Below, one piece after another: positions 1 through 46,541 of a stretch of DNA of 64,000 nucleotides. Both the position numbers and the translations under genes were made by a program. Source of the DNA: Escherichia phage anhysbys. How positions within the stretch are numbered: the stretch's first letter is position 1; each line of letters opens with the position of its first letter. The DNA lies in sequence record NC_052656.1. The stretch is one strand, 5' to 3'. Below the pieces are notes generated by a model, which saw only the letters and a list, made by a program, of their open reading frames with translations, did not search any database and was not told the origin of the DNA.

Positions 1-194
1 AGTATGATGGCAAGTTTCCGTGGGAGAAAGATGTTTGTGCCTGTGATTCAGCAGCACATGCCAAAGCAGCGGGTCAGGCAGTAGTTGACATGTATAACAA
101 CACCCCCTTTGATCCAGAAATGGCAGGTGTTACAATGAGCATGTTCACTTACTATTCTTTTGAGGTTTACTATCACGAAGGAGAGTGGAAATGA
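1..194 (+). CDS. hypothetical protein (5'-truncated at window edge)
   Basis: Frame open from position 3 to TGA at 192-194; stop overlaps next start (ATGA). Confidence 0.4.
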   Translation, partial: YDGKFPWEKDVCACDSAAHAKAAGQAVVDMYNNTPFDPEMAGVTMSMFTYYSFEVYYHEGEWK

Positions 195-511
195 GCGAAG
201 AGCTATTAACATTTTACCGCACGTATTTGGCATGGTTGGAAGCTGGTGCTCCTGAAGGTGAACCGTTCACCCGTTGCACAGGTTTGTGCACGAACCTCTA
301 TGATTTTTACGACATAGGAGAAAGCGAACGATACGAACCTGTACTGGATGAAATGCATGAGCAGTTCTACCTCAAAGGTTTGGTTATGGTGTTGCCTTTC
401 AACAGTAATTTTGGAAAGTACACCTTAGAAGCGGAAAAAGGCCGTTGTCATTTGAATGTGGATCGTGTGAACTGGGTAAAAGAACGTGTAGCAGAAGAAA
501 TAATTGGTTGA
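191..511 (+). CDS. hypothetical protein, paralog family 1 (C-terminal D-R-V-x-W-V-K-E-R-V motif)
   Basis: ORF track 185..511; ATG at 191 follows AGGAG; C-terminus aligns with ORFs at 3029 and 4334. Confidence 0.55.
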   Translation: MSEELLTFYRTYLAWLEAGAPEGEPFTRCTGLCTNLYDFYDIGESERYEPVLDEMHEQFYLKGLVMVLPFNSNFGKYTLEAEKGRCHLNVDRVNWVKERVAEEIIG

Positions 512-565
512 CAGAAGGATCTGTCTTTGTCATAATCGTCTCATCGAAACAGAGAGGAGAAAATC

Positions 566-979
566 ATGAAAAAGTTTATTTGCACCCGTTCCACTAACAG
601 TGATATCCTTGTAGGTAAAGTTATCAAAGGAGAACTCTTCCATGCAAACGGTAAGAAATATATTCTGCTGAAAGATTCTTTCAACGGGGAATATCCGCGC
701 TGCACTTTCTTCAATTACAATACTCCATTTGCTTTAGAAGGAGATGCTTGGGACTGGGCTGAACTTCATCCTTGTTGTGAGGAAGAAGAATCTATGTTCT
801 TAGGTTTAAACGTTTACCGTGTAGATTACACCATGTGCGGAGCGGAATATTCTGTTCGCGTAGAAGCCGAATCCAAACTACAAGCACCTTTCAAGGCGGG
901 ATTGACTTTGGGTCATTGTTTGGCAAACATTGAAGATGTTGTGATCCAAAGAGTTGTTTTAGAGAAAGAGGCTATTTGA
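566..979 (+). CDS. hypothetical protein
   Basis: 137-aa ORF, RBS gagaggagaaaatc upstream of ATG. Confidence 0.5.
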   Translation: MKKFICTRSTNSDILVGKVIKGELFHANGKKYILLKDSFNGEYPRCTFFNYNTPFALEGDAWDWAELHPCCEEEESMFLGLNVYRVDYTMCGAEYSVRVEAESKLQAPFKAGLTLGHCLANIEDVVIQRVVLEKEAI

Positions 980-1031
980 CAGAAGACGGTACAATATTTA
1001 AAATATAAAGATTAACCACAAAGGAGAGAAT

Positions 1032-1331
1032 ATGCAAGTTGAAGACCTGATCCACATTCTGAATAAAGCTAAAGAGAAGGGTGCTATCAAAGACTGGAAA
1101 CGTGAAACAAGTGAAGATTTATCTCATTGTTGCCGAGAATTTTACATCGAAGGTATTGCTGACGATCATTATACTATTGAATGGTATATCAACTTAATGA
1201 CTCTTAAGCACGGTTCATTTGAGGTTTGGTTTGATGATATTGATGTAAATGGTTTCCATCCTGGCTATAAAATCGCTATGCAGTTATCTTATCGTAGAGA
1301 AGTTGTAGCACATTTGGGTTTACATAACTAA
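1032..1331 (+). CDS. hypothetical protein
   Basis: 99-aa ORF preceded by aaaggagag RBS. Confidence 0.5.
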   Translation: MQVEDLIHILNKAKEKGAIKDWKRETSEDLSHCCREFYIEGIADDHYTIEWYINLMTLKHGSFEVWFDDIDVNGFHPGYKIAMQLSYRREVVAHLGLHN

Positions 1332-1341
1332 GGAGAAAAGA

Positions 1342-1665
1342 ATGCAAGCAGTTGTTAACGAAGCTATTATGAACTTATCCTTCTTGTTAGCTGGTTTAGG
1401 AGGTGTTCTCATAGGTTTGGCTCTTATCTGGTGTATTCGTCGATTAATCGGGTACCGACAAAAAGGTGTTTCATGTTTTGTATCTTACAATTTTACAACT
1501 GCTTACAGCAATGAGGTTGGATCTGGCAATGCTCAAGCATTTTTACCAACATATCCTCCTACGGTGGAAGATATTCGAAACTTGGAAGTAGAACTTATGG
1601 GACTAGGTGATAACTATACATCTCTAGTTATTCAAAATATTTTTCGACTAAAACAGGGGGCGTGA
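1342..1665 (+). CDS. hypothetical membrane protein
   Basis: 107-aa ORF; hydrophobic N-terminal segment LSFLLAGLGGVLIGLALIWCI. Confidence 0.45.
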   Translation: MQAVVNEAIMNLSFLLAGLGGVLIGLALIWCIRRLIGYRQKGVSCFVSYNFTTAYSNEVGSGNAQAFLPTYPPTVEDIRNLEVELMGLGDNYTSLVIQNIFRLKQGA

Positions 1666-1878
1666 ATGAAGGTATATTACCCTCATCCGTTTGATCCTAA
1701 AAACAAAGCCGTAATTCTTCGTCAGTGGCAACGGGTTTGTCGTACTAAATGTCCAATCAATAGCCCACACAATGTAGACAAGGACTATCTTGGGACATTT
1801 GTTGAATACACTTACATAGACAAAAACAAGCGTAAACAACATGTCGAGGAATACTGCTTAAGAGTAGAATGGCTGTAA
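1666..1878 (+). CDS. hypothetical protein
   Basis: 70-aa ORF, start overlaps previous stop. Confidence 0.4.
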   Translation: MKVYYPHPFDPKNKAVILRQWQRVCRTKCPINSPHNVDKDYLGTFVEYTYIDKNKRKQHVEEYCLRVEWL

Positions 1879-1890
1879 ATAATAAATACC

Positions 1891-1919
1891 TTGACAAGTG
1901 TTTATTCATTTTGTAAAGT
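1891..1919 (+). promoter_or_regulatory. sigma70-like promoter (TTGACA-17-TGnTAAAGT)
   Basis: TTGACA at 1891-1896, 17-nt spacer, TG-extended -10 TAAAGT at 1914-1919, upstream of recombinase gene. Confidence 0.4.
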
Positions 1920-1948
1920 GAGAATACAGCAATGGTTTAGGAGTGGTT

Positions 1949-2620
1949 ATGAAAAAGTTTGTTGTTTACAGTCGTCTTTCTAAACAGAAAAAAGGCGAGG
2001 CACAATATGGTATGGAGAGCCAAGAGAACGATATCCGTTACTTCTTAGACTCTGTGCCTGATGCGGAAGTTATTGGTCAATTTTCTGAATACTATTCGGG
2101 TAAGGGCGATTGGAAGCAACGTAAGGAACTGGTTAAAGCGGTTGAAATGTGTAAAGCTACCGGAGCAACTTTATTGGTAGCTAAAGTTGACCGCTTGGGT
2201 CGTAACAACGCCTCCGTAGCAACTCTTCTAGAAATGATTGATGTTAAGATAGCCATTATGCCAGATGCAGATAAAATGGTTATACAGCTTCTGTCTGTTC
2301 TGGCTGAACAAGAGGTTAGAGGTATTGCTGATCGTATTAAAAAGGGTCTTGCTGTAGCAAAAAGCAAAGGTGTTTTATTAGGCAGTGCTAATCCTAAAAC
2401 TGCCGCTGCACGTAGAAAAGGAAAAATGGAATACAACTCTGTTAAAGCAGACGCTTTTGCAGAGACATTTCGTGAACGTTTGGAGATCCTGAGAGATTTA
2501 AATACACCTTACAAAACTATTGCTGAAAAATTCAATAGTAAGAAAATAGCAACAGCACGTGGTGGTAAATGGGATGCTAAGACTGTTTCTCGTTTGTGTG
2601 CCAGACTGAACATTAAATAG
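1949..2620 (+). CDS. serine recombinase (resolvase/invertase family)
   Basis: N-terminal VVYSRLSKQ (catalytic Ser region), LLVAKVDRLGRN resolvase core motif, C-terminal HTH-like segment; RBS aggag before ATG 1949. Confidence 0.7.
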   Translation: MKKFVVYSRLSKQKKGEAQYGMESQENDIRYFLDSVPDAEVIGQFSEYYSGKGDWKQRKELVKAVEMCKATGATLLVAKVDRLGRNNASVATLLEMIDVKIAIMPDADKMVIQLLSVLAEQEVRGIADRIKKGLAVAKSKGVLLGSANPKTAAARRKGKMEYNSVKADAFAETFRERLEILRDLNTPYKTIAEKFNSKKIATARGGKWDAKTVSRLCARLNIK

Positions 2621-2628
2621 GAGAGGAT

Positions 2629-3051
2629 ATGAAACAAGAAAATGAATCTGTAGATCACTTAATCATGCTGTCAGCCCTTTTTGCAGGATGGGACGTATTT
2701 TTTGAAAATTTGTTCAATTCTGCTACAGATGGTTCCGATTTTATGCGCCAATTTAAACGACGAACTGTTGAGGACTATACCTTCTATTCAGGTCTGATTG
2801 AAAAAGGTTACGAAGATACAAATACAACACTCACCATTAAAGTTTTAGATGTGATGTTTAGTGTTATAGATGCTATCGACGAAAGTCTTCCGATCCTAGA
2901 CAATTGTAATACGAAAGCCTATGTTTACAAAATAGCTCGTGCTTATGTGTCTGCAAACAGTTGTCTTCTTTCCACCCAGATTGCCGTGAACAATCTTGCC
3001 AACTTGTTTGATGAAGGAGAAACTTTTTATGACAATCGATTTGAAGTGTAA
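2629..3051 (+). CDS. hypothetical protein
   Basis: 140-aa ORF with aggagaggat RBS. Confidence 0.45.
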   Translation: MKQENESVDHLIMLSALFAGWDVFFENLFNSATDGSDFMRQFKRRTVEDYTFYSGLIEKGYEDTNTTLTIKVLDVMFSVIDAIDESLPILDNCNTKAYVYKIARAYVSANSCLLSTQIAVNNLANLFDEGETFYDNRFEV

Positions 3052-3394
3052 GAGGATTCTTTTAGATTTCTATAATAATTGGTTAGAACACCTCCGTCTC
3101 TTTCCAAGAGAAAGTGGTTACGCTGATGTTGGCTTATGCCGAGGTCTGCGTATGTATATAAGCGATGAATTTCGGGCAGAGCATTCTTTAGCATATTCTG
3201 TTTATGGTATGCAATTAGCCAGTTTTGAAAACGCTGGCTTAGATACAACTTTCCCATTTAACACAGCAAAATCTTTTGAGCAAGAGTGTAAGGAAAAACG
3301 TTGTATGTTTAATGAAAAACGTGTACAGTGGGTTAAGGATCGAGTTAAACAACTGGAACAAGAGTTGGATTTCTTTTATGACGAGGCAGAATAA
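3029..3394 (+). CDS. hypothetical protein, paralog family 1
   Basis: ATG 3029 after gaaggag; shares FY..WLE / GLC / KRVQWVKDRV motifs with ORFs at 191 and 4334. Confidence 0.5.
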   Translation: MTIDLKCKRILLDFYNNWLEHLRLFPRESGYADVGLCRGLRMYISDEFRAEHSLAYSVYGMQLASFENAGLDTTFPFNTAKSFEQECKEKRCMFNEKRVQWVKDRVKQLEQELDFFYDEAE

Positions 3395-3666
3395 TGGATA
3401 GACAAACCTTAAAAACAATGGCAGATGCTACTAATTCTCCGTACTTTGAAAAAGTAAGTAAATTGGTAGCTCAAGCCGCAGAGGAAGGATATTATAACAT
3501 AAACATCCACAACCCAAGTCTTATACTAGAAATGCCAAGTGATAAAAAGATACAAGAGAGTATCTGTGAAGGTATTGTTAGTTACTGGCGCGAGCGTGGG
3601 TGTGGTGCAAACATGGCTTTAGACAGTGCAAACATTGTAAGATATATAAATATTTCTTGGGGGTGA
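3394..3666 (+). CDS. hypothetical protein
   Basis: 90-aa ORF. Confidence 0.45.
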   Translation: MDRQTLKTMADATNSPYFEKVSKLVAQAAEEGYYNINIHNPSLILEMPSDKKIQESICEGIVSYWRERGCGANMALDSANIVRYINISWG

Positions 3667-3670
3667 TTTT

Positions 3671-4282
3671 ATGATTCAATGCACTCATATCCAAATTACT
3701 TGGAGAGATGAACTTTACCATTTGGGACAATTTACTGTAGGGGAAACATACCCTATCATTAAACATAATCCTAACATCGCAAACTTTGACAGGATGGTTC
3801 TTGTTGAGGACGATCTAGGTCAAACTTATTCTTTAGATCTAAAATATCCGTTTTCTTACGGCTACGATTGGATCGTTACTTTTGAAGACGCGGAGGAAAA
3901 TAAAACAATGAACGAAAAAAATTCTTGGTATTATCGTTGCGAACTGCCGCCAGTAGGTGAAAAGGTTATCTTTGTTCCCGATTTGGAAAGATATTCTTGG
4001 GATAGTTCTTATTCTGTTCCTAAAGAAGGCACCGAAGTTGAAGTTATTGCACATCGCACAACTTCGCATGGTAACGACGTAGCAGTTGTTTTCTGGGATG
4101 ATGAAGGTGCTGCTTGTGCAGGTGGCTTTGTTGCAGGTAATTTTGAACCCCTGCCAGATCCTCTGAAGGAGGCAATTTTAGGCGTAGCTTCTTTTGGACT
4201 CTCTTACACGTCTGCACAAGAGATTGTAGAAGGTATTTTAAACGGTACCGTTCCAAACGAAATTTTCAAACAGATTAAATAA
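3671..4282 (+). CDS. hypothetical protein
   Basis: 203-aa ORF. Confidence 0.5.
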   Translation: MIQCTHIQITWRDELYHLGQFTVGETYPIIKHNPNIANFDRMVLVEDDLGQTYSLDLKYPFSYGYDWIVTFEDAEENKTMNEKNSWYYRCELPPVGEKVIFVPDLERYSWDSSYSVPKEGTEVEVIAHRTTSHGNDVAVVFWDDEGAACAGGFVAGNFEPLPDPLKEAILGVASFGLSYTSAQEIVEGILNGTVPNEIFKQIK

Positions 4283-4287
4283 CAGTT

Positions 4288-4313
4288 GCACCCCGTTCTT
4301 CGGGGTGTTATTG
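4288..4313 (+). terminator. intrinsic terminator-like hairpin
   Basis: GCACCCCG-ttctt-CGGGGTG stem-loop followed by T-rich tract. Confidence 0.45.
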
Positions 4314-4333
4314 TATACGTAAAGGAGGAGATA

Positions 4334-4672
4334 ATGTATTACACTGAAGACTACATACTGTATAACTTTTTTAAAGGCTGGTTGGAATGGGCGGAAAAAG
4401 CTCCTGTTGGAGATTGTGTTTTTCCTTGGGACTCTCGTCAAGGTTTGTGTCGTTGTTTGGAAGACTGGCTTATAACCACAAGCTACAACTCAGAAACTAA
4501 GAAATCTACATCACAAAGGTTAAAAATTTTATTTGAAGAAGATGGTTTAGATCCAATTTATCCTTTCGGTGAGGAAAGTTTCCACAATGGTCTTTTCCTT
4601 GGCACTCAACATTATGATAAAGATCGTGTAGATTGGGTAAAAGAAAAGGTAGCACAGTATGAATGGGGTTAA
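4334..4672 (+). CDS. hypothetical protein, paralog family 1
   Basis: ATG 4334 after aaggagg; C-terminal DKDRVDWVKEKV motif shared with ORFs at 191 and 3029. Confidence 0.5.
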   Translation: MYYTEDYILYNFFKGWLEWAEKAPVGDCVFPWDSRQGLCRCLEDWLITTSYNSETKKSTSQRLKILFEEDGLDPIYPFGEESFHNGLFLGTQHYDKDRVDWVKEKVAQYEWG

Positions 4673-4862
4673 GAATTATCACCGCTGGTTACAAAGCTAT
4701 CTTAAGAAATGTGAACTTGGTGTTCCAGGTTATACTTACGACACAGACGAGATCCTTGATGAAATGGAAGTTTGGTTTAAAGAACCTCGTGAGCTATTGG
4801 CAAATATTCTAATGGCTTGGGATGGTACGGCACAAAGCATCGAAGGGGGTAGAAATGAGTAA
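4659..4862 (+). CDS. hypothetical protein
   Basis: 67-aa ORF. Confidence 0.4.
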   Translation: MNGVKNYHRWLQSYLKKCELGVPGYTYDTDEILDEMEVWFKEPRELLANILMAWDGTAQSIEGGRNE

Positions 4863-5006
4863 GAAATTGTTTAATATTCGTGAGAATCGTGATGGATCGT
4901 TCTCTGTAGTCAATGAATTTAACGTTTCGGTTGGGACTTTTATTACTAAACGTCAAGCAGAACAAGTAAGAGATACTTTAAACAAGTAAATTTTTAAGGG
5001 GGACTT

Positions 5007-5426
5007 ATGTTAGGTAAGATCAAAGCTTTTTTCAAACGTATTGTTGAAGGAAGTCCAACAGAAGGTGCATTAGGAAGATCTCTAACAGGAGAACCACTTG
5101 CCATAATTTCTATCAGTCGGCATGGCGGATATTCCATTCGACAAACACCTTTAGGTATAAAAGGTAGTATGCTTTCTTGGACAATATCTCAAGTTGGTGA
5201 TAACAGACTTGCAGCTATAGCATTGCTTCGTGGGGAGTATGACTATTGTTTATCAGCATCTTGTAAAAAGCACCTCATAGAGCACATTAGAGACAGAGTA
5301 GAAAGAGAAGGCGGATACTTCTTCGAAACTAAGAGAAACGAACAAGGAACTCTTGACTTCACTAAGGTTTACTGGGACAATCATACTCGTCAAACTGTTG
5401 AACAACTTCTGGAGGAAAGATGTTAA
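5007..5426 (+). CDS. hypothetical protein
   Basis: 139-aa ORF with aagggggac RBS. Confidence 0.45.
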   Translation: MLGKIKAFFKRIVEGSPTEGALGRSLTGEPLAIISISRHGGYSIRQTPLGIKGSMLSWTISQVGDNRLAAIALLRGEYDYCLSASCKKHLIEHIRDRVEREGGYFFETKRNEQGTLDFTKVYWDNHTRQTVEQLLEERC

Positions 5427-5629
5427 AAGCTTTTGCTGTATACTCTACTGTAGGATTCTTTTATTGGATTATAGTTATTGTCGGATGTTGGTTAGGTTCT
5501 TGTGTTGTGATGGGAGAATGGTTAACATACAACGTATTTGAATGGGATGTAGTTTGTAGATCATTACTTGTTATATGGACTGCTATTGTTTGTTGGACAA
5601 CTGTTAGTCTAACATTGGATCTATACTGA
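5420..5629 (+). CDS. hypothetical membrane protein
   Basis: 69-aa ORF, two hydrophobic segments. Confidence 0.4.
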   Translation: MLKAFAVYSTVGFFYWIIVIVGCWLGSCVVMGEWLTYNVFEWDVVCRSLLVIWTAIVCWTTVSLTLDLY

Positions 5630-5638
5630 TTAATAGAT

Positions 5639-5667
5639 GGTAGATAGATGATCATAGTTTATCTACC
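5639..5667. repeat. inverted repeat GGTAGATA / TATCTACC (8-bp arms, 13-nt spacer)
   Basis: Perfect 8-bp inverted repeat directly after the stop of the 5420..5629 ORF. Confidence 0.6.
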
Positions 5668-5797
5668 TTCACTTACGTTTCATACCTCACTATCGTGAGT
5701 AACATGAAACATTATTATATAGAAATCTACTACTCGCTATCGCTCGTAAACATATGTTTAGGGTACCATATTTTTTTGAAAAAGTCAATGCTGATTC

Positions 5798-5867
5798 ACC
5801 TATCAATTATCTGTTTAAGATAAGTCTTACCTATCAATCTAACTCTTAACTAGTATTGCACCTATAG
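5798..5867. repeat. three phased direct repeats ACCTAT(C/A) at about 31-bp spacing
   Basis: ACCTATCA at 5798 and 5829, ACCTATAG at 5860, inside a 360-bp non-coding AT-rich region. Confidence 0.5.
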
Positions 5868-5922
5868 TAAGATTATTCCTATGGTTATTAACCCTCTTCT
5901 TCTATAGAATGTAATTAGATCC

Positions 5923-5952
5923 TTGACAAACTCACAAAACTTGTGTTACATT
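5923..5952 (+). promoter_or_regulatory. sigma70-like promoter
   Basis: TTGACA at 5923-5928, 17/18-nt spacer, TTACAT/TACATT -10, about 40 nt before the ORF at 5990. Confidence 0.45.
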
Positions 5953-5989
5953 GTGTCTCACAGGTGAATAATACCGAACAGGAGGAAGA

Positions 5990-6205
5990 ATGAGTTCCAA
6001 TTTTCTATACAAAGCAAAAGATTCACGAGATGGAGAGAAACATTGGTGGTTGATCACAGGAGATGGTGTTATCATCCTACCGTGGGACGGAGAGACAAAA
6101 GTTCAAATACTGGAGAAAGTAAAAGGTGTTAGTTTTAATGTTAGTCATGACATAACAACTTTCAAAGCTTTTGCAATGAATCCCAGTCTTGTTGCTGAAT
6201 GGTAA
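5990..6205 (+). CDS. hypothetical protein
   Basis: 71-aa ORF with aggagg RBS. Confidence 0.5.
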   Translation: MSSNFLYKAKDSRDGEKHWWLITGDGVIILPWDGETKVQILEKVKGVSFNVSHDITTFKAFAMNPSLVAEW

Positions 6206-6437
6206 TCCAGGAGAAAATATGACTAAAATGTATGCAGCCGTTGATAAGCTGGATGGGTCTGATTCTGTTTTTATTTTGAATAAAATGGGTGTCTTAGTTT
6301 ATGCCCGAACTTCTCAAAACATAGAGCACCAAGTGGAAGCAGCACAAATTTTAGAGCAAATAACCCCTCCATACCTATACTCAAATGTTGAGCGTTTTAA
6401 CGATGCACTTGGTTTGACGTTAATAGCGGAATGGTAA
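6189..6437 (+). CDS. hypothetical protein
   Basis: 82-aa ORF. Confidence 0.45.
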   Translation: MLLNGNPGENMTKMYAAVDKLDGSDSVFILNKMGVLVYARTSQNIEHQVEAAQILEQITPPYLYSNVERFNDALGLTLIAEW

Positions 6438-6637
6438 TAATGGCGAAAATGTTGAAAATTGATAATGTCGTAACAATCACTACGTCTATACCTTGTCCTC
6501 CTATGCCTTGCCCCTATTGTGGTGGTGCAGGATATGTTATGGCGGATGTAGGTCAAATTTACGAGTGTAACCCGTGCAAAACCACAGGTTATATCCAAAT
6601 AGAATCAGAGGAGAAACACTATGAGCCAAAACGCTAA
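6431..6637 (+). CDS. hypothetical zinc-ribbon protein
   Basis: CPYCGG ... CNPCKTTG cysteine pairs. Confidence 0.4.
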   Translation: MVIMAKMLKIDNVVTITTSIPCPPMPCPYCGGAGYVMADVGQIYECNPCKTTGYIQIESEEKHYEPKR

Positions 6638-7070
6638 AGAAAAAGAAGTAATCACGGTAATCCGTCAGATGGAAGGTGCCGAAAACAATGCTTTTGTTAC
6701 TAAGATTCTTCTTAATATCTTTGAAGATGTTATTTTAAACAACCCTGGTCATAAAGATTATCAGTATGATGTTATGATGGGTGCTTTACTTGAGATTAAC
6801 AAAAACACTTTTGCTGAATATGAGCAACACATGCTTTTACCAGAGGAAGATCAGGATTATTTGTTATCTGGTGCTTTAAGTGCACAAGAAAATTTCTACC
6901 ACGTTCTTAATATGGCTTATGCAGATGAACTTGCTGTTTCCCTTGAAGAGCGGATTCAAATGGTTCGTGACGTAATGAATGAACAAATCCAAGAAGTTGA
7001 AGACTTGGTAGCAGAACCTTTAGCAGAAATTCGTGCAGCTATTGAAAAACAAAAAGGAACTCAATCATGA
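6621..7070 (+). CDS. hypothetical protein
   Basis: 149-aa ORF. Confidence 0.5.
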   Translation: MSQNAKEKEVITVIRQMEGAENNAFVTKILLNIFEDVILNNPGHKDYQYDVMMGALLEINKNTFAEYEQHMLLPEEDQDYLLSGALSAQENFYHVLNMAYADELAVSLEERIQMVRDVMNEQIQEVEDLVAEPLAEIRAAIEKQKGTQS

Positions 7071-7234
7071 TGCAAGTAGGTGATGTGGTTTGTCTTAAAG
7101 GTGCAAACAAACAAATGACAGTAATAGAAAGTTATGGTGAATCTTGTAAAGTAACTTGGTTCGATGAAAACGGGGAATTGCAACACGCCATATTCGATCA
7201 AAAAGCTTTGAGGAAGGTTGAAGAAAAAGAATGA
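7067..7234 (+). CDS. hypothetical small protein (55 aa)
   Basis: ATG 7067 to TGA 7232-7234, below the ORF-track size cutoff; fills the gap between flanking genes. Confidence 0.35.
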   Translation: MMQVGDVVCLKGANKQMTVIESYGESCKVTWFDENGELQHAIFDQKALRKVEEKE

Positions 7235-7494
7235 GCCATCCGTCAATATTTTTCTGTTTTGTAGATCTTGAAAACGAGTCTTTAATCGTTGATAGTGAGG
7301 GTTACTTCACTTATTGGGAATCCGAGCACGAAACTATAAGTGTAGTGAAAGAAATTATGCAAACCAATCCAAGCCTACCAGCGCATAAGTACGGTATTGC
7401 AAAAGTGTTTGTTACTAAAACAGAGTACACAAAAGAGCGAAGCACTTTGTACCATAATATTGAAGTGATTCACTATTTCAAAGATGTTATTTAG
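7231..7494 (+). CDS. hypothetical protein
   Basis: 87-aa ORF. Confidence 0.45.
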   Translation: MSHPSIFFCFVDLENESLIVDSEGYFTYWESEHETISVVKEIMQTNPSLPAHKYGIAKVFVTKTEYTKERSTLYHNIEVIHYFKDVI

Positions 7495-7502
7495 GAGGTT
7501 AT

Positions 7503-8111
7503 ATGGAAGAGAAGATTTGGGATGGTAAAGATCCTTTAGAAGTTGGACACGTAGCGCGTGTCAAAAAATCTACTACAGGTCCTGGTTTTTCTGGTTTGTA
7601 TCATATACCAGAAGAAGGTCAGCACGTTACAATTTTGGCTCGTGACAAACAAAACGGAGCAACGCCTGTGTGGATTGTTCGTTGGTATGACAAAGATCTT
7701 AACATTTGCTTGTCACCTATTATGGCTCATTTGCTGGAAGCCCCTTGCTCTGAAGAAGCTCTAATTTTTGTTTCGGCTTTTCAGAAAGCCACAGGTTTAA
7801 CATTAGATGCAAAAGATGTGCAAAAAGCATTTGACATTATTCAGGAAGACAACGATACTACATCTAACGACGAACTGGTTGAAGTTACAATCTTATCTTC
7901 AGCAGATATCCGAGAGATTGATAATTGTGATTTTCCAATCACATTTAAAATGTCGCAGAAAGACATGCAGTCATCTGGAAGTTGTTTTGGTATACCTCGT
8001 TGGTTTTTTGATTCTATCAAAAATTCTACTACAGAGGGATCAGACTATGATCAAGATGACGTGCTTTGGTTCTTAAAAAACCGAGAGATTGTTCTCTCAC
8101 CACTTAAATAA
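7503..8111 (+). CDS. hypothetical protein
   Basis: 202-aa ORF with aggagg RBS. Confidence 0.5.
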   Translation: MEEKIWDGKDPLEVGHVARVKKSTTGPGFSGLYHIPEEGQHVTILARDKQNGATPVWIVRWYDKDLNICLSPIMAHLLEAPCSEEALIFVSAFQKATGLTLDAKDVQKAFDIIQEDNDTTSNDELVEVTILSSADIREIDNCDFPITFKMSQKDMQSSGSCFGIPRWFFDSIKNSTTEGSDYDQDDVLWFLKNREIVLSPLK

Positions 8112-8231
8112 GGAGAAATAATGGTTTCATTTATCGTAGGTGTAGTTGTAGGCTATCTTATTAACAAATATCAAGACGTTATCACGGCAAAAGTAAAAGA
8201 CATTTTAGACTCATCTAAATAATCTATCAAA

Positions 8232-8259
8232 GCTGCATCTTCAATAGGTGCAGCCTTTT
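8232..8259 (+). terminator. intrinsic terminator
   Basis: GCTGCA ... TGCAGC stem-loop followed by CTTTT. Confidence 0.45.
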
Positions 8260-8274
8260 AAAAGGAGATATGGC

Positions 8275-8448
8275 ATGACTAAACGCACTGATTTTAAATG
8301 TATGCATTGTGGGAAATCTTTTGGGGATCATCAAGCTCGCACATTCAACTGTCCACGTAAAGGTCGCGGAAATTTTAAAGGTTTTAATCCCGCACATGTT
8401 TATTCTCCAGATTACGATAAGCCAGAAGAAGAAAAATTTGTTATTTAA
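8275..8448 (+). CDS. hypothetical Cys-rich small protein
   Basis: ATG 8275 after aaaggag; CMHCG ... FNCPRKG. Confidence 0.45.
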   Translation: MTKRTDFKCMHCGKSFGDHQARTFNCPRKGRGNFKGFNPAHVYSPDYDKPEEEKFVI

Positions 8449-8460
8449 TAAGGAGGTCAT

Positions 8461-8742
8461 ATGGAACTCGTTCAAGAATTGTATAATGCTTTAGGAGCAA
8501 AAGGAAAAGATTGGCCCGAACATGCGCTTATTGCTATAAGAGACTCCGATGGTGAGATTAAGTTTTCAAGCGTAAGTAAAGAGCACATCGTAGAAACAAA
8601 ACTGGGTATTTACATGCGTGGAACTTATTGCTTATTCAACACCAGAATGGTAGAAGCCCCTGTTATCGAGGATGGAACAAAAGATTGCCCCACAATCGTA
8701 ACAAAATCTGAATATGAGAAGTTTTTCTACGCTAAGGCTTGA
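8461..8742 (+). CDS. hypothetical protein
   Basis: 93-aa ORF with aaggagg RBS. Confidence 0.5.
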   Translation: MELVQELYNALGAKGKDWPEHALIAIRDSDGEIKFSSVSKEHIVETKLGIYMRGTYCLFNTRMVEAPVIEDGTKDCPTIVTKSEYEKFFYAKA

Positions 8743-8787
8743 CACAGAAACAATACTATAGGATAGTGATCCTATCGTAGCAATAGA

Positions 8788-8808
8788 ACCCGCTTCGGCG
8801 GGTTTTTT
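8788..8808 (+). terminator. intrinsic terminator (UUCG tetraloop)
   Basis: ACCCGC-TTCG-GCGGGT followed by TTTTTT. Confidence 0.7.
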
Positions 8809-8833
8809 CATATCTGTAGCAATAGGAGGTCGT

Positions 8834-9064
8834 GTGTTAAATAAAATCGAAGAAGGTTGTATGGCATTTTTGGTAGATAACCCGTTTCCCTTTATGGTTA
8901 AGGTCCATGTAGGAGAGTATTTAGGTTATGACGAATGGGATTGTAGTATCAATAGTGAAATGCACCACTACCAACCAACAATACTTAAGACGGATCAAAT
9001 GGCGCGTATTACAGTAGAGGATGAATTGATCATTGAGTTATACGAGAGAGCACTACACAAGTAA
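8834..9064 (+). CDS. hypothetical protein
   Basis: 76-aa ORF, GTG start after aggagg. Confidence 0.45.
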   Translation: MLNKIEEGCMAFLVDNPFPFMVKVHVGEYLGYDEWDCSINSEMHHYQPTILKTDQMARITVEDELIIELYERALHK

Positions 9065-9105
9065 GCTAGAACCCACCTAAATCGAACAGAGACGCTCTAA
9101 AATAG

Positions 9106-9135
9106 AAAAGGCACCCACTTGGGTGCCTTTGTTTT
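9106..9135. terminator. bidirectional intrinsic terminator at the convergence of plus and minus blocks
   Basis: AGGCACCC-ACTT-GGGTGCCT hairpin flanked by A-run upstream and T-run downstream. Confidence 0.65.
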
Positions 9136-9406
9136 ATTCTTCGTTAGATTGCGTCTCAGACGCGTTAAATTCGGTTTCAGTACAACTTGCTAAGTAACTT
9201 ATATTTTGCATCACTACAACTACAGGTGTTTGAAGTTTATCTTCTAGCCCCGCAGCCACTTGAGCCAAGGCATTATCAATATTTGATTTCCTAACGCCTG
9301 TTCCATGTCCTGTTGCCAAGTAAAGATTACCTTCCCCTTTTTGTGTAGCATTGGCAAAGTAGTAAACGTAATGTGCAAGGTAGTAATCACGGATTTCTTC
9401 AGTCAT
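9134..9406 (-). CDS. hypothetical protein
   Basis: 90-aa ORF. Confidence 0.45.
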   Translation of the reverse strand: MTEEIRDYYLAHYVYYFANATQKGEGNLYLATGHGTGVRKSNIDNALAQVAAGLEDKLQTPVVVVMQNISYLASCTETEFNASETQSNEE

Positions 9407-9449
9407 TTTATTCTCCTAATAAGAAAGGGGCCGAAGCCCCTTGAGTGGT

Positions 9450-10265
9450 TTATTTGTTTAAGTGGTCTTCGACCATTTTAATGAAACCTTCATTGCTGAA
9501 GGCTGTTGCAGCTTTTTCTCGGTAAACAAAAACTCCACGATCTTCATAGAGAAGTGTTTCTTCGTAATTAACTCCAGGGTTAACTACAACCATTTTTGTA
9601 CCCATACTAAGTGCAGGAAATAATTCCCAATTAAAATTGATAATTTGGTTTGAACATCCTACTACTACAACCAAATCTTGCATGGTCAAAGTATCGAACA
9701 AGTGAGCCATATCTGCATACAAAGGTGCAGCCTCACCAAAAAATACAACATTAGGCTTCACCCAGTTATAATCATCTATGTTTATACTATTGTAACCAAT
9801 ATCTACCAGTGTTTTGTAATCTCCAGGATGCATACGGTAAACTACTTCAGGAAGATAGCCGTGTACGTGAATAACAGAATCTCTGTCTACACCTGCTCGC
9901 TCTAGTAGATCATCAACGTTTGTTGTCAAGTTTACTATTTGGTTAGGATATTCCTTAAACCACTTTGCTATTTGAATATGTGCAGCATTAGGTTGTACAT
10001 CTTTAAGCTCAACACGTCTTTTGTTATAAAATTCGTGTGTTTTGGCATACAAATCCATACCGTTCTCGTCTACACCACCGACCACTGGAAGATCTGGAGA
10101 TGTTCTAACACGATAACCTGCTTGGAAAGCTCCAATATCGCAGACCTCTTCTAAATCATATTCTTCCCATAAAGCACGACCACTATCTGTGTCTGTTCTA
10201 AATGTTCGAATCCCACTGTCTGCACTTAAACCTGCACCGCTTACAAAAATCACTCGTCTTGGCAT
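9450..10265 (-). CDS. SIR2-family (sirtuin-like) NAD-binding protein
   Basis: GAGLSADSGIRTFR, TTNVDDLLERAG, VIHVHG, NVVFFGE and VVVVGCS match sirtuin core motifs; no Zn-ribbon cysteines. Confidence 0.7.
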   Translation of the reverse strand: MPRRVIFVSGAGLSADSGIRTFRTDTDSGRALWEEYDLEEVCDIGAFQAGYRVRTSPDLPVVGGVDENGMDLYAKTHEFYNKRRVELKDVQPNAAHIQIAKWFKEYPNQIVNLTTNVDDLLERAGVDRDSVIHVHGYLPEVVYRMHPGDYKTLVDIGYNSINIDDYNWVKPNVVFFGEAAPLYADMAHLFDTLTMQDLVVVVGCSNQIINFNWELFPALSMGTKMVVVNPGVNYEETLLYEDRGVFVYREKAATAFSNEGFIKMVEDHLNK

Positions 10266-12536: not shown

Positions 12537-13461
12537 AAGGCTTTACTACATGTTGATTAGCTTTAAAACGTTCAACATAGTCGTTTTCGCCCATGTTTTC
12601 ATATAGCTTAATAACAACATAAAAGTTTTCCCAAGCATATTCCCTAAACCAACCACTAGTGATGGATGTGCAGACTTTAGATAAAGCCATTATAAAACTT
12701 TGCTTAGGGGTTGGACCTCCGATCTCTCCACCGAAAGGAATTTGTGAACGTTCCAAAGCCAAAACACACGCTTCTTCATAAACACCTAACAGGCGCACAT
12801 GTTTTGGTTGAGCAAAAAACTTTTCTTTGCTGGTCATAACTTCACTTCCATCTTTCATATAAGATTTATATGCTGGGGCATCCATTACCGCGATTGCTTC
12901 ATGGATAGAATCATGATCATAAACATACGGAACCTCATCACCTTTAAAAAAGTCTTTACTTTTTACGTTTAAGTTCGGATGAGAGTAAGTGTATGTTTCT
13001 TTCTCACGCAACTCATAAATACTCTTAAGATTTTCTGGGATCTTTGCGCCAAGTGACCGCATGAAATGAATATCTTTCATAGTTTTAAAGAAGTGAGGAC
13101 TATCCTTTTTAAAACGATGACTCATTTTAAGAAGGTAGAGCACATCTAAAGGAGCAACAACATGTCCAGCATAAGTTCGACGAACATCATCAGAATCTTC
13201 ACAATAACTAATCAAAGCTTCTGTGCTATCTCCTTGAGAAGCAATATCGTATTCCAAATGTGCACCAGCTATCATTTTGACATGGCCTTTGTTCCCTTTA
13301 CGTTCTACAAGTTCAACAAACTCATCTTGAGAGAACATTTTTGATAATTCTTCCCACTCTTGTTCTGTACACAGGTAATCTAAATCTACACAAGGGCGAT
13401 ACAAGTCTTTTCCCATGTCCATAGCATGAATTTGTAATGCACGGCTACCAATTAACACCAT
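12520..13461 (-). CDS. hypothetical protein (313 aa)
   Basis: Long ORF; N-terminal GS...DLD pattern is only weakly nucleotidyltransferase-like. Confidence 0.5.
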   Translation of the reverse strand: MVLIGSRALQIHAMDMGKDLYRPCVDLDYLCTEQEWEELSKMFSQDEFVELVERKGNKGHVKMIAGAHLEYDIASQGDSTEALISYCEDSDDVRRTYAGHVVAPLDVLYLLKMSHRFKKDSPHFFKTMKDIHFMRSLGAKIPENLKSIYELREKETYTYSHPNLNVKSKDFFKGDEVPYVYDHDSIHEAIAVMDAPAYKSYMKDGSEVMTSKEKFFAQPKHVRLLGVYEEACVLALERSQIPFGGEIGGPTPKQSFIMALSKVCTSITSGWFREYAWENFYVVIKLYENMGENDYVERFKANQHVVKPFEGGY

Positions 13462-13519
13462 AATATTTCTCCTCTATTGGTTGATAGGTTAAGTTTATCA
13501 AGCTTCCAGATTCCTGTCA

Positions 13520-13545
13520 ATAAAAAACCCGCCGAAGCGGGTTAT
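13520..13545 (-). terminator. intrinsic terminator (UUCG tetraloop) on minus strand
   Basis: Minus-strand CCCGC-UUCG-GCGGG followed by UUUUUU. Confidence 0.7.
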
Positions 13546-13551
13546 TATTTA

Positions 13552-13824
13552 CTAACACATTGAGGAAGAAGAGATCCAAACACCTCTTGTGGTTAAACCA
13601 TTTTCATCCAACTCTACACCATAATCTTCACAAATGAAATCAATATAGTGATCTGCGGCTGGCGTTCCTGTAGGGTAATAAGTTTCTCCGTTACCGTAGT
13701 CACCTATCCAAGCTTGTTCCTGAAACTGTTCACAAAGTTCTTCAATTTCCTTACGAAACTTTCTTTGTGCTTGTTCCATCTCTTTAACTTTCTTTTTTAT
13801 CAGCAGTTCGCCTTCAGACTCCAC
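13552..13824 (-). CDS. hypothetical acidic protein, paralog family 2 (C-terminal GVWISSSSMC)
   Basis: 90-aa ORF; GTG start after AAGGAGAG overlapping upstream stop. Confidence 0.5.
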   Translation of the reverse strand: MESEGELLIKKKVKEMEQAQRKFRKEIEELCEQFQEQAWIGDYGNGETYYPTGTPAADHYIDFICEDYGVELDENGLTTRGVWISSSSMC

Positions 13825-17852: not shown

Positions 17853-18043
17853 TCTACCAAAGAGAATTCCGCCTCTTCTAGGTAGATTACAGACCTTGTT
17901 GCATGATATTTAACGCTCCAGAAATTACCTTCGCGCCGTAAAAGTATCTCATTCACATCAAGATTGCTTAGAAAAACCATATAACTTAAAGCTTGTTGAC
18001 GCGTTGAGAATTGTTTCTCTAAAAGTTCTTCTCCGCTCTGCAT
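17849..18043 (-). CDS. hypothetical protein
   Basis: 64-aa ORF. Confidence 0.4.
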   Translation of the reverse strand: MQSGEELLEKQFSTRQQALSYMVFLSNLDVNEILLRREGNFWSVKYHATRSVIYLEEAEFSLVE

Positions 18044-18089
18044 AATCCCTCCTTAAAAATACTCCCTCCGAAAAGGGAGTATAAGTATA

Positions 18090-18293
18090 TCACGTAGTTG
18101 TTATGTTGTCTTCTTGGATACTAGAATCCACTTCTGCAAACATATCTTCTGCACTGTAATTATTTCCAGTCCAGCGTGATAAAAGGATAGCACCAATCTC
18201 TTTTGCATGAGATTCGGACTCCGCATAAACGTTAGTCCCAGTGTCACCTTTTTTCTTTTCATGTGCATAAATGCAGTAATAATTGTAAGCCAT
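18090..18293 (-). CDS. hypothetical protein
   Basis: 67-aa ORF. Confidence 0.4.
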   Translation of the reverse strand: MAYNYYCIYAHEKKKGDTGTNVYAESESHAKEIGAILLSRWTGNNYSAEDMFAEVDSSIQEDNITTT

Positions 18294-20742: not shown

Positions 20743-21501
20743 TTAAATAAACACTTCAGTAATCAGTTTAGACAAACGTCCACGTTTATTATCGTCCGTT
20801 GTCAGTTCAACATATCCAATAAAATCTACAATTGGCTCACGAACACCTTCTTCATTCTCTGGATATAAAAGTTCCAAAATTTGATGCAGACCATTGCTAC
20901 GTTTTTTAATTGCATATGTCTGGCGAACATCGCCTAATACAATAACATGCGTATTAATACCTGCACGTTCAATAAGAAGTTTAAGTGTTTCTGTTGACAT
21001 AAGTTGTGCTTCGTCAATAATGACGATTGTATTATCCAGGGTAGCCCCCAACAAATAGTTAGGAATATTCAATTCGATCTTACCTGATCCAATATCGTTT
21101 TCCAATTTGTTGGCTGTCATGAATTGCTGGAAAATACGTTTTGTAGATTCATAGTGTGCTGCTAGTTTATCTGTTTTATCCCCAGACAAGAAACCAATCT
21201 GGTCATCTCCGACTTCAGTAGGGTTCTTGATAAAAAGTAGTTTACGGAAGTCTCCTGAACGAAGCATCTGCAAAGCTTTCCATAAAGCAACAGAGGTTTT
21301 ACCAGTCCCTGCCGGAGCATTTACAACAGTCAGATCATTCCAAATCATGCTTTGAACAATCTTATTTTGGTCCCCTTCAGGCATAAATTCATCTAAACGG
21401 TAATCGTCATTACCTACCGCTTTTGCTGCATAACGGCTTTCAATCTTTGCTGAATTAGCCAGTTTCTGCCGTTGTGTTTTAGCTGCGGTTTTATTTCCCA
21501 T
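20743..21501 (-). CDS. phoH: PhoH-like ATPase
   Basis: Walker A NAPAGTGKTSVAL and PhoH-like core; start moved to ATG 21501 after AAGGAG. Confidence 0.8.
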   Translation of the reverse strand: MGNKTAAKTQRQKLANSAKIESRYAAKAVGNDDYRLDEFMPEGDQNKIVQSMIWNDLTVVNAPAGTGKTSVALWKALQMLRSGDFRKLLFIKNPTEVGDDQIGFLSGDKTDKLAAHYESTKRIFQQFMTANKLENDIGSGKIELNIPNYLLGATLDNTIVIIDEAQLMSTETLKLLIERAGINTHVIVLGDVRQTYAIKKRSNGLHQILELLYPENEEGVREPIVDFIGYVELTTDDNKRGRLSKLITEVFI

Positions 21502-21520
21502 AGTAGCACTCCTTTTAGAA

Positions 21521-21540: not shown

Positions 21541-22039
21541 AGTTGTAAGCATCTAAAGTTCCAGAAGTCAGAACTTTAATTACTCGTTCAGCACGGTTTG
21601 GCGTCTGGCTATACCATCGGCTTTTACGCATGTTTTTACCTGCTTGAGTATAATATGCATTGCTGATTAAAGTCAAGCTATTTTGAAACCCTTCAGCACC
21701 TTTTAACCCCAACTGGAAAACCATGTTGATTATTCCCAATTTACGAGTATCACTAACCTTATCATAGATTGGTGATAAGATAGTACTGTTTTTTATGTCT
21801 CTCTTCACTTTTGCAACATCGTCAGCAAAGATTTGACGGGCTTCTTTTTCTGTGATAACTCCATTAGTCTTACGACCAAGAAGATTATCTAAGATTTGAA
21901 TAGCCTTTGCTTTATCTTTTATTTTAGTCAGAAGGTGTCCTATGCCGACTGTCCAATAACCAAGATGGTCTTGATAAACAGTAAGCTTCAGTCCTTCATC
22001 GACTCGTAGCATATCAAACTCATCTACTACTTTAGCCAT
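21539..22039 (-). CDS. T4-type lysozyme (endolysin, GH24)
   Basis: FDMLRVDEGLKLTVYQDHLGYWTVGIGHLL closely matches the T4 lysozyme N-terminus including the catalytic Glu/Asp/Thr positions. Confidence 0.9.
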   Translation of the reverse strand: MAKVVDEFDMLRVDEGLKLTVYQDHLGYWTVGIGHLLTKIKDKAKAIQILDNLLGRKTNGVITEKEARQIFADDVAKVKRDIKNSTILSPIYDKVSDTRKLGIINMVFQLGLKGAEGFQNSLTLISNAYYTQAGKNMRKSRWYSQTPNRAERVIKVLTSGTLDAYN

Positions 22040-22046
22040 TTACTTC

Positions 22047-22196
22047 CTACTCGTCGTCTCCTACTCCGTGATCCAACTCGTTAAACAACAGATGTTCTGG
22101 AGAAGTTTCACGTTTTGGTTTCGTTTTCTTTATGTTGGACTTCAGCTCATTTGCCAAAGCACGAGAAAAGATCTTACGTTTCTGTTTACTTTTCAT
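22047..22196 (-). CDS. hypothetical small basic protein (49 aa)
   Basis: ATG 22196 after GGAG, between glutaredoxin and lysozyme genes; below ORF-track cutoff. Confidence 0.3.
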   Translation of the reverse strand: MKSKQKRKIFSRALANELKSNIKKTKPKRETSPEHLLFNELDHGVGDDE

Positions 22197-22201
22197 AATT
22201 G

Positions 22202-22462
22202 TTACTCCGCAATTTGAGCCATGAGATCACGCAGTTCGGTAAAACCGCCTACGTATGTTACCTCCCCGTTCACTTCAGACAGAATTTGTGGAAATGTGCG
22301 TGGAGGAACTCCGGTAAGATCAACAACTGTTTTAGTCATTGATTCTAAATCATAGTCTTGATCAAGACTTAAATATTCAAACTGTTTATTGCGCATGGTT
22401 AATAGTTGTTTTGACATTTCGCAAAATTGACAGTTAGGTTTACCAAAAATTACAAATTCCAT
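22202..22462 (-). CDS. glutaredoxin/NrdH-like redoxin
   Basis: N-terminal FGKPNCQFCEMSK (CxxC) thioredoxin-fold signature; sits near nrdAB. Confidence 0.6.
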   Translation of the reverse strand: MEFVIFGKPNCQFCEMSKQLLTMRNKQFEYLSLDQDYDLESMTKTVVDLTGVPPRTFPQILSEVNGEVTYVGGFTELRDLMAQIAE

Positions 22463-24705: not shown

Positions 24706-25790
24706 TAGAAGTCAAGCTCCTCATCATCAGAGAGATCTTTGTTAGCTGAATTCAATTTGTAATTAGTTAACTGAATCTCTTGGGCTGCTGACTGAATCAA
24801 ATCAGGATTCAACCATTTTTCCATCCAAGCTAAAGGACTATGTTTAGGTGCTTTAAACTTGGCTTTCATTTTCAATCGACGATAAATAGGAGCAGCATTG
24901 AAATAAACCCACTGTTTAGACAATTCGGCGTTAAGACCTACAATAAAACGACCTTCACTAAACAGGTAGTCACACCACTGTTCCTCTTGTTCAACAACAG
25001 TGTCGAGGATCAAAGTCAACTCTTCAATATTGTCTTCGTAAATTTTACGCCAAATTGGGTCATGCATCAATGCATCAATTACAGCATAATCCATCTTAAC
25101 ATGCAAGATTTCATCTAGCATAATTTTCTGGATCAGCTTACAAGCCCCAACAAACAATTGTTGTTCTGCCATAGCAAAAGTAGCAGAGAAGGAAGATATA
25201 AACTGAATACCTTCTAATCCAATCAGGGCTACCATCCCTTTAAGAATCAGCAATCGAAGTTCATCGTTAGCTTCAATCAATCCTAGAGCATACTTATGAC
25301 CAGCTTCTTCCAACTGACCCATGATATCAGCAATGATACCCATACGATTGAAAATTTTATCATTAATCATAATCTGATTGATGACTTCAATTGGATCTGG
25401 AGTACATTGACGGATTATTTCAGAATACGTTAACGCATGGAGAACTTCCATTTCACTCTGCTTCATCATCATAGCACAGGCTTCATTGTTACTCAAGAAT
25501 GGAGAGAACAAAGTGATGATTGATTTTGCAAGAGAATCATTTTCCCATTGGAACGATAAGTTTTTAATCATAACATCATAGTTGTTTTTAGAACAAGCTA
25601 CGAAATCTTTACGTGTCTGATCCAAGTTAACTTCGTTTTCATCCCAATCTTGTGCTTTTTGAAGTTTGTAGAGTTTGTGCATTTCTGGATAAGTTACGTT
25701 AACAGAATCAAAGATCCCTAATTGCTCCCCCAAAAATACTGGATATTTTCCTGTTTTGTAAACTTCGTTGTGTAAATTAATTGCTGCCAT
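24705..25790 (-). CDS. nrdB: ribonucleotide reductase class Ia beta subunit
   Basis: 361-aa ORF with ferritin-like R2 features (EVLHALTYSEIIR etc.) directly downstream of nrdA. Confidence 0.85.
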   Translation of the reverse strand: MAAINLHNEVYKTGKYPVFLGEQLGIFDSVNVTYPEMHKLYKLQKAQDWDENEVNLDQTRKDFVACSKNNYDVMIKNLSFQWENDSLAKSIITLFSPFLSNNEACAMMMKQSEMEVLHALTYSEIIRQCTPDPIEVINQIMINDKIFNRMGIIADIMGQLEEAGHKYALGLIEANDELRLLILKGMVALIGLEGIQFISSFSATFAMAEQQLFVGACKLIQKIMLDEILHVKMDYAVIDALMHDPIWRKIYEDNIEELTLILDTVVEQEEQWCDYLFSEGRFIVGLNAELSKQWVYFNAAPIYRRLKMKAKFKAPKHSPLAWMEKWLNPDLIQSAAQEIQLTNYKLNSANKDLSDDEELDF

Positions 25791-46129: not shown

Positions 46130-46203
46130 GCGTTCTTGGTGTAGCGGTAGCATTCCGTCCTTCCAAGTCGGCGGCACGAGTTCGATCCTCGTAGAACGCT
46201 CCA
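46130..46203 (+). tRNA. tRNA-Gly (anticodon TCC)
   Basis: Acceptor GCGTTCT/AGAACGC, loop CTTCCAA, T-arm ACGAG-TTCGATC-CTCGT, encoded CCA. Confidence 0.75.
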
Positions 46204-46301
46204 AATTATTTAATAAAGGGTTGCCAGAAAACTTTCTCTTTTACTCATGGTTTTCTCCTTCTCTCACACCTCTTCTGGTTGCCCTTCATTAAATGATTTA
46301 T

Positions 46302-46376
46302 TGGTTTGTAGTGTAGTCCGGTAGCACACGACACTTTGACTGTCGTAGGTTTGGTTCAAATCCAGACAGACCAGCC
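46302..46376 (+). tRNA. tRNA-Gln (anticodon TTG)
   Basis: U1-A72 acceptor TGGTTTG/CAGACCA with discriminator G, stem CGACA/TGTCG with loop CTTTGAC, encoded CCA. Confidence 0.8.
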
Positions 46377-46382
46377 ATATAA

Positions 46383-46459: not shown

Positions 46460-46465
46460 ATCAAA

Positions 46466-46539: not shown

Positions 46540-46541
46540 GT

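Follow-up and report, generated by a model that had tools for sequence, protein, structure and literature searches.

In this study, we show that three short genes at the beginning of a 64,000-nucleotide stretch of the genome of Escherichia phage anhysbys (NC_052656.1; the whole stretch is referred to here as the window) encode diverged copies of a single all-alpha domain of about 100 residues and five helices. We further show that this N4 gp3-like domain, carried by the genes that we call paralogs A, B and C, is a member of a very large family that is all but restricted to phages, that the family expands repeatedly, both as arrays of genes and as proteins with tandem domains, and that neither characterised proteins nor solved structures include a detectable relative. 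A host-takeover or anti-defence role, as put forward in a preliminary description of this DNA, is plausible. Within that frame we tentatively favour an early cytoplasmic binding or inhibitor module against host components, with specificities that would vary from paralog to paralog and with a dimer, perhaps, as its working form.

First, the three genes are related over the whole length of the domain. Pairwise BLASTP comparisons gave 31% identity for A and B (E 2e-8), 32% for A and C (E 2e-9) and 32% for B and C (E 8e-10), and because each alignment spans about 100 residues, the similarity is far above chance and not confined to the C-terminal motif. Among the 21 invariant columns of the three-way alignment are GLC, PF and RV.WVK..V. 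Searches with hmmscan placed all three proteins in phrog_2510 (E 1e-30 for A, 2e-26 for B and 3e-26 for C), in each case over profile positions ~4-113 of 219, that is, over one of the two repeats of the profile; phrog_6418 and phrog_27059 matched more weakly, and all three PHROGs are labelled 'unknown function'. Our own family hidden Markov model (HMM) recovered A, B and C with E-values of 9e-37, 2e-24 and 2e-26, respectively. Each open reading frame (ORF) is also preceded, at a suitable distance, by a good ribosome-binding site: GGAG stands before the ATG of A and AGGAGG before that of C, and for B the ATG at 3029 was preferred over an upstream ATG at 3011 and a TTG at 2996 because AAGGAG lies 9 nt upstream of it. 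The product of C has exactly the sequence of YP_009985489.1 from Escherichia phage anhysbys.

These results bear out much of the preliminary description, which had read the three ORFs as paralogs with a common GLC motif and a near-identical C-terminal segment. The genes lie where it had placed them, GLC is invariant, and the C-terminal segment was given exactly (DRVNWVKERV, KRVQWVKDRV and DRVDWVKEKV). A shared N-terminal region exists as well, although the 'FY..WLE' block proposed for it is an approximation of what the proteins carry (FYRTYLAWLE, FYNNWLEHL and FFKGWLEWAE). Chance similarity had been named as the outcome of alignment that would undo the family, and the significant pairwise scores rule it out. 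More broadly, the alternative that the resemblance reflects chance or low sequence complexity, or that the ORFs are not genes, is vanishingly improbable and was rejected in view of the pairwise E-values, HMM E-values down to 1e-37, the ribosome-binding sites, purifying selection and thousands of homologues.

Second, the family is larger than the three copies in the window. A six-frame HMM scan of the window returned A, B and C and no further member. The first HMM, built from these three, detected a fourth copy ~575 bp upstream of the window start in phages ETEC-TG and ASO2A. ETEC-TG belongs, together with the Escherichia phages Mt1B1_P17 and dw-ec, to the genus Phapecoctavirus (subfamily Stephanstirmvirinae), and window bases 1-8000 are 98.4% identical to these three phages. 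A scan of the whole ETEC-TG genome with an improved HMM, for which the flanks were taken from the ETEC-TG record and the middle was represented by the window itself, yielded seven members and no others (Table 1). With four copies upstream of the window in this near-identical phage, the 'three-member' family of the preliminary description was an undercount. All seven lie on the same strand within 13.4 kb of small ORFs and are 22-53% identical to each other in pairwise comparison; the two closest pairs are also physically close, with p1 and p2 adjacent (51% identity) and p4 and A 440 bp apart (53%). They constitute by far the largest paralog family of the small-ORF block, and the triplicated genes first seen in this block of same-strand ORFs are real paralogs.

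Nor is the family limited to one phage. When 1.84 billion representative proteins, clustered at 50% identity, were searched exhaustively with a profile, 2005 clusters matched at E<=1e-3 and 1027 at E<=1e-10. The family includes gp3 of phage N4, gp006 of phage phi92 and proteins of N4-like, T7-like and T1-like phages that infect many Proteobacteria. All source names of the homologues read 'hypothetical protein' from phages. A tblastn search with paralog A matched 252 phage records, ranging over N4, phi92, Justusliebigviruses, PhiW-14, T1-like phages and T7-like Klebsiella phages and including N4-like phages of Achromobacter, Erwinia, Klebsiella, Rhizobium and Delftia; jumbo phages are also among the carriers. 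Foldseek comparison against BFVD matched only uncharacterised phage homologues and added the Burkholderia phages JG068 and BcepSaruman (multi-domain forms of 271 and 344 residues), Pectobacterium phages and, more distantly, Pseudomonas KPP10-type phages. The pattern CHLNP[KQA]R[IV], from a narrow sub-alignment, occurs at one locus in bacterial genomes and at one in IMG/VR, and is too narrow to gauge distribution.

A single homologue was found in 72,556 plasmid records. This match (NZ_CP148392.1, 49153-49632; 159 residues, 39% identity to A) lies on a 92.8-kb E. coli molecule with phd/doc, a DUF2829 gene and other phage-type genes; since it combines phd/doc with phage-type genes, it is a phage-plasmid, and its homologue shows that the family is not entirely exclusive to virulent phages. 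We also noted, in T1-like phage Bas79, an unannotated family member on the + strand (PQ850629.1, ~46192-46593; HMM E 3e-30), where Bas79_0090, a coding sequence (CDS) on the − strand, is annotated over the same DNA; that annotation is probably wrong.

Expansion is a recurrent trait of the family. About one sixth of the best 150 matches carry two or three tandem copies of the domain; among the matches listed, proteins with two or three domains number 26. In roughly a third of the multi-domain proteins, domains of the same protein match one another best, and therefore intragenic duplication occurred repeatedly. A ~104-kb metagenomic phage contig (ERR9974861_4) holds four neighbouring genes with six domains (1+2+2+1) at 6953-9474, which is an independent expansion in an unrelated phage, and the T7-like Klebsiella phage GP-4 has two copies. 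Fusion partners were not found: the longer homologues are made up of extra domain copies or of unannotated linkers without Pfam domains. The N-terminal hydrophobic stretch of one homologue (P0160), which was read by eye, is uninformative.

Third, the domain has a confidently predicted fold and a strongly conserved set of residues. An AlphaFold2 model of paralog A, computed from a 100-sequence alignment, reached a predicted local distance difference test score of 95.8 and a predicted template modelling score of 0.88, with helices at residues 3-17, 32-39, 42-61, 74-82 and 90-105. Conservation was counted over 187 domain instances in profile numbering. The most conserved positions are Cys36 (99%), Pro73 (100%), Phe74 (99%), Arg94 (98%), Trp97 (91%), Asn/Asp91 (87%) and His89 (79%), together with Phe9, Trp16, Phe29, Gly34-Leu35, Asn38, Phe63, Gly67-Leu68, Tyr79 and Val98. 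GLC marks the start of helix 2, PF the loop between helices 3 and 4, H.N the residues just before helix 5, and R..WV helix 5 itself. GLC, PF and R..W are present in all three window proteins and in N4 gp3. At the H.N position, A (CHLN) and C (QHYD) keep the histidine, and B (RCMFN) has methionine instead; across the family the histidine is replaced by Tyr, Met, Trp or other residues in about 20% of domains. The conserved polar residues of the model sit at helix starts and in long loops: helix 2 has the cysteine in its first turn, and helix 5 has His/Asn at its N-cap.

Such a set of residues could belong to a miniature Cys-dependent enzyme, in which the cysteine that stands N-terminally in helix 2 would act as nucleophile in a triad with His and Asn/Asp, and Arg would serve for substrate binding. 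Early in infection, such an enzyme would act by modification or cleavage on a host macromolecule or on a nucleotide-type metabolite, and copies lacking the histidine, such as B, would be inactive binders. The commonest residue pattern at these positions is C..H.N/D, and reactive cysteines typically occupy helix-dipole positions, which is where the model puts Cys36. Conservation of Cys, His, Asn/Asp and Arg across phages of very different hosts further suggests a universal substrate. However, the loss of the histidine in a fifth of the domains, paralog B included, speaks against catalysis, and a 100-residue all-helical bundle would be unusually small for such an enzyme and has no fold precedent. 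The residue types are those of Cys-His-Asn/Asp hydrolases or transferases, for example papain-like enzymes, but the five-helix all-alpha fold is unlike theirs and gives no ground for membership. On balance, we regard an enzymatic activity as unlikely. A family-wide zinc site was rejected: CxC...CH is present in some Phapecoctavirus copies, such as p1 and p2, but only Cys36 and His89 are conserved and 120 of the 187 domains have no Cys at either of the positions that could supply a third ligand, 38 and 88.

Comparisons with known proteins, for which the library scans covered the three proteins, 8 members and 100 members, brought no relative to light. Pfam gave no match for A or C and one sub-threshold chance match for B, and over 100 diverse members it returned only singleton weak matches, to 22 unrelated families, with nothing recurrent. 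NCBIfam had no match, and PADLOC gave one weak singleton match only. Profile searches against all PDB sequences reached a best E-value of 0.7, and the model of A had no fold neighbour. Solved representatives of anti-defence or host-takeover proteins (Ocr, ArdA, AsiA, Tad1, Tad2, Acb2, Gad1 and others) showed neither sequence nor fold similarity. The Pfam, NCBIfam, PDB-sequence and fold comparisons detected no enzyme or DNA-binding family, and in these and in PADLOC A, B and C had no homology to characterised inhibitors. A role as a DNA mimic was rejected, the charge being too modest for it (predicted isoelectric points of 4.5-6.2 for the seven copies; family median 5.6).

The conserved cluster of polar and aromatic residues would also suit a small-molecule sponge, a protein whose conserved pocket sequesters an immune signalling nucleotide or an NAD-derived signal in the manner of Tad1, Tad2 and Acb2. 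The proteins are small, abundant in phages and located in early regions, and the family includes tandem and oligomer-like architectures. Seven diverged copies would, however, not be needed for one ligand, and the hosts of the carrier phages differ widely in their signalling defences. We consider this possibility improbable.

The genomic position of the family points to early expression. N4 gp3 lies at 1214-1528, between gp1/gp2 and gp15/gp16, which have been described as early gene products (PMC4496689), and the early region that holds gp3 also contains gp8, 1 kb further downstream. In N4-like phages of Achromobacter, Erwinia and Klebsiella the homologue lies 2.4-3.7 kb from the left end. The gene for phi92 gp006 is located 2 kb from the left terminal repeat, within a block of 36 genes on the + strand that ends just before a Sir2-like gene. 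The window is organised in the same way: its dense run of small + strand ORFs extends from base 1 to ~9100, the GC skew flips after ~9 kb at the onset of − strand genes, and it is at this point that related phages annotate a Sir2-like gene. In Klebsiella phage GP-4 the leftmost operon, which follows an annotated host promoter, contains a homologue ~1 kb from the gene for an S-adenosylmethionine (SAM) hydrolase.

The sigma-70-like promoter match in the window (Table 1) overlaps a weak hairpin directly after paralog A and would drive the next gene, and a terminator is annotated at this place in ASO2A. Perfect TTGACA -35 boxes occur at several intergenic sites on the + strand of the window, but promoter-like matches as a whole are no more numerous than expected from shuffled sequence. 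As a consensus match, the candidate promoter after A is consistent with transcription of the block by host RNA polymerase early in infection. At the position equivalent to the terminator-like hairpin before paralog C, a rho-independent terminator is annotated in ASO2A.

The single copy that N4-like phages keep at a fixed position next to the transcription cofactors somewhat favours a role internal to the phage, in which the proteins would assist or regulate its transcription, its replication or the protection of its DNA, perhaps by binding nucleic acid. Helix 5 also carries conserved basic residues (R..WVK/R). Against this, most of the proteins are acidic, natural isolates can dispense with gene A, and the carriers (N4-like, T7-like, T1-like, phi92-like and jumbo phages) differ wholly in their strategies of transcription and replication. 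A phage-internal function seems to us quite unlikely.

Fourth, the genes are conserved in sequence between phages, and gene A is variable in presence. The ratio of non-synonymous to synonymous substitution rates (dN/dS) of A, B and C against their orthologs in ESCO13 and ASO2A was 0-0.14, like that of neighbouring genes (A 0.14, against ASO2A; B 0.00-0.02; C 0.11-0.14), and the three are constrained coding genes that are not fast-evolving on this timescale. The upstream copy p4 gave a dN/dS of 0.52, a value resting on few changes. Gene A is absent from ESCO13 and DIJ07P2, in which homology to the window starts only at ~451-497; both preceding small genes are present at the ESCO13 locus. Among 74 Phapecoctavirus-like records matching window DNA, 40 carry A at at least 90% identity, and gene A is an accessory gene that natural isolates can do without. 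The word 'diversifying' in the preliminary description is apt for the paralogs, which have diverged to 22-53% identity and of which A is variably present, but not for orthologs between phages, which are under purifying selection. Its question of presence and copy number in related phages likewise has a twofold answer: ETEC-TG has the full seven copies, and ESCO13 and DIJ07P2 lack A.

If the proteins are indeed a binding or inhibitor module, they would be soluble, cytoplasmic and made early in infection, and each would act by binding a defence protein or a housekeeping machine of the host. At the conserved pole, Cys/His/Asn/Arg and the aromatic residues would form a binding or ligand site common to all; the seven paralogs would differ in specificity or partner through their variable helix surfaces, and the working unit could be a dimer or multimer, as the tandem-domain relatives suggest.

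Several observations weigh against this proposal. No experiment or homology ties any member to a target, and our literature search returned neither a function described for N4 gp3, phrog_2510 or Phapecoctavirus homologues nor a documented toxicity or target for gp3-family proteins. No conserved neighbour or partner gene was found for the family. We infer early expression from gene position, and the literature yielded no Phapecoctavirus transcriptome. That the conserved polar residues would face one pole of the bundle is read from secondary-structure positions only. In N4-like phages, even those of distant hosts, just one copy is kept and its position is constant, which looks more like a core early function than a patchy anti-defence gene. 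Moreover, Cys and Arg are invariant and His and Asn near-invariant in phages of hosts as different as Rhizobium, Pseudomonas and E. coli, a pattern that suits a catalytic or small-ligand site at least as well as a protein-protein interface.

Comparison with known systems helps to place the family. N4 gp3 (YP_950481.1) belongs to it by family HMM (E 3e-22) and by tblastn from A (4e-8), is 20-31% identical to the copies of this phage and shares their GLC, PF, H.N and R..W signature; gp006 and gp010 of phi92 are members as well (HMM E 3e-25 and 2e-22). Both N4 gp3 and phi92 gp006 share with the present genes a location in an early block near the genome end. N4 and most small phages have one copy, whereas this phage has seven. 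The matches to N4 gp3, phi92 and phrog_2510 give the family a name, through relatives that themselves have no known function. T7 Ocr, T3 SAM hydrolase, Tad1, Tad2 and Acb2 are likewise small soluble proteins from first-expressed variable regions, a likeness of kind and not of family: the present proteins have no sequence or structural similarity to Ocr, Tad1, Tad2 or Acb2, and their charge is not that of a DNA mimic. The proximity of the GP-4 homologue to a SAM hydrolase gene and the variable presence among close relatives resemble what is seen for small anti-defence genes. The host-takeover proteins T4 AsiA and N4 gp8, a clamp loader inhibitor, are also early, small and predicted helical proteins of lytic coliphages. 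SUKH/Imm-type immunity domains are reportedly multi-paralog, tandem-domain conflict families in phages. Like the present family, they show diverged paralog arrays, tandem copies of a domain of ~100-150 residues and lineage-specific expansion, but SUKH has an alpha+beta fold in contrast to the all-alpha five-helix bundle described here, and Pfam matches to Imm or SUKH were not recurrent among 100 family members.

Table 1. Family copies and transcription signals, in window coordinates and in coordinates of phage ETEC-TG.
Feature	Window position	Strand	ETEC-TG position	Description
p1			12990-13334	family copy 1
p2			13324-13692	family copy 2
third copy			17960-18274	
p4			21182-21508	copy just upstream of A
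paralog A	191..511	+	21947-22267	fifth of seven copies; 106 aa, N4 gp3-like / phrog_2510 domain; identified by ORF, ribosome-binding site and profile matches
paralog B	3029..3394	+	24785-25150	sixth copy; 121 aa, same domain plus 15-residue acidic C-terminal tail
paralog C	4334..4672	+	26090-26428	seventh copy; 112 aa, same domain; first gene past the terminator-like hairpin
sigma-70-like promoter match	508..536	+		TTGACA-17-CATAAT with TG, 11/12; consensus match only
terminator-like GC-rich hairpin	4288..4308	+		follows the preceding operon, ahead of paralog C; outside the family

The small-ORF block holds further genes of note, all on the + strand of the window. A serine recombinase / DNA invertase gene at 1943-2620 differs from its ESCO13 counterpart by 18 synonymous and 0 non-synonymous changes, leaving the protein perfectly conserved. 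The 70-residue ORF at 1666-1878 has 76-82% nucleotide identity to a segment in the tk.3/tk.4 region of hundreds of T4-like phages, and its phi92 counterpart, gp013, is annotated 'Tk.3-like'; it looks like a gene exchanged between Stephanstirmvirinae and Tequatroviruses. Two adjoining ORFs of ~71 residues (5990-6205 and 6222-6437), both with an ..AEW end, are weakly similar (24% identity and E 4e-4, from one comparison) and may form a further pair of small paralogs, and the ~200-residue ORFs at 3671-4282 and 7503-8111, weakly similar over a 64-residue segment (28% identity, E 8e-4), may be distant paralogs. The 68-residue ORF at 6431-6637 contains two CxxC motifs, CPYCGGAGY and CNPCKTTGY, the first of the CxxCxGxG type, and looks like a DnaJ-type zinc finger; a comparable phi92 gene is annotated 'DnaJ-like zinc finger'. 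In several related records a CDS that overlaps this ORF in the same frame, starting 9 nt further in, is called 'DNA ligase', which is probably a mis-annotation.

Finally, some of this was already known: the sequences are catalogued, in PHROGs and as 'hypothetical protein', and families of small early genes that have expanded are a familiar sight in large lytic phages. New are the seven-copy number, the link to N4 gp3 and phi92 gp006, the size of the family and its tendency to tandem duplication, the confident fold without a solved neighbour and the signature centred on Cys and Arg. The family occurs in model phages (N4, phi92) and in phages that are therapeutic candidates (Phapecoctavirus, T1-like phages and T7-like Klebsiella phages), sits where phages keep their first-strike genes and has no Pfam entry or solved structure. 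A confident model without structural neighbour, together with an invariant cysteine, makes the domain a tractable structural and functional target, and the seven-copy expansion offers a natural panel for the dissection of specificity. A more far-reaching proposal, which we put forward as a doubtful one, is that the N4 gp3-like domain has a new fold and a pocket with a reactive cysteine, and that it defines a widespread, hitherto unrecognised class of phage counter-defence or host-takeover effectors, either a miniature Cys-dependent enzyme or an inhibitor or sponge against a target conserved across Proteobacteria, with the seven paralogs as a specificity panel. If the family does not act against the host, it would be one more expanded family without known function, of a sort common in large lytic phages; if its members do inhibit defences or essential machinery of the host, annotation would be gained in one step for thousands of early genes now called 'hypothetical'.

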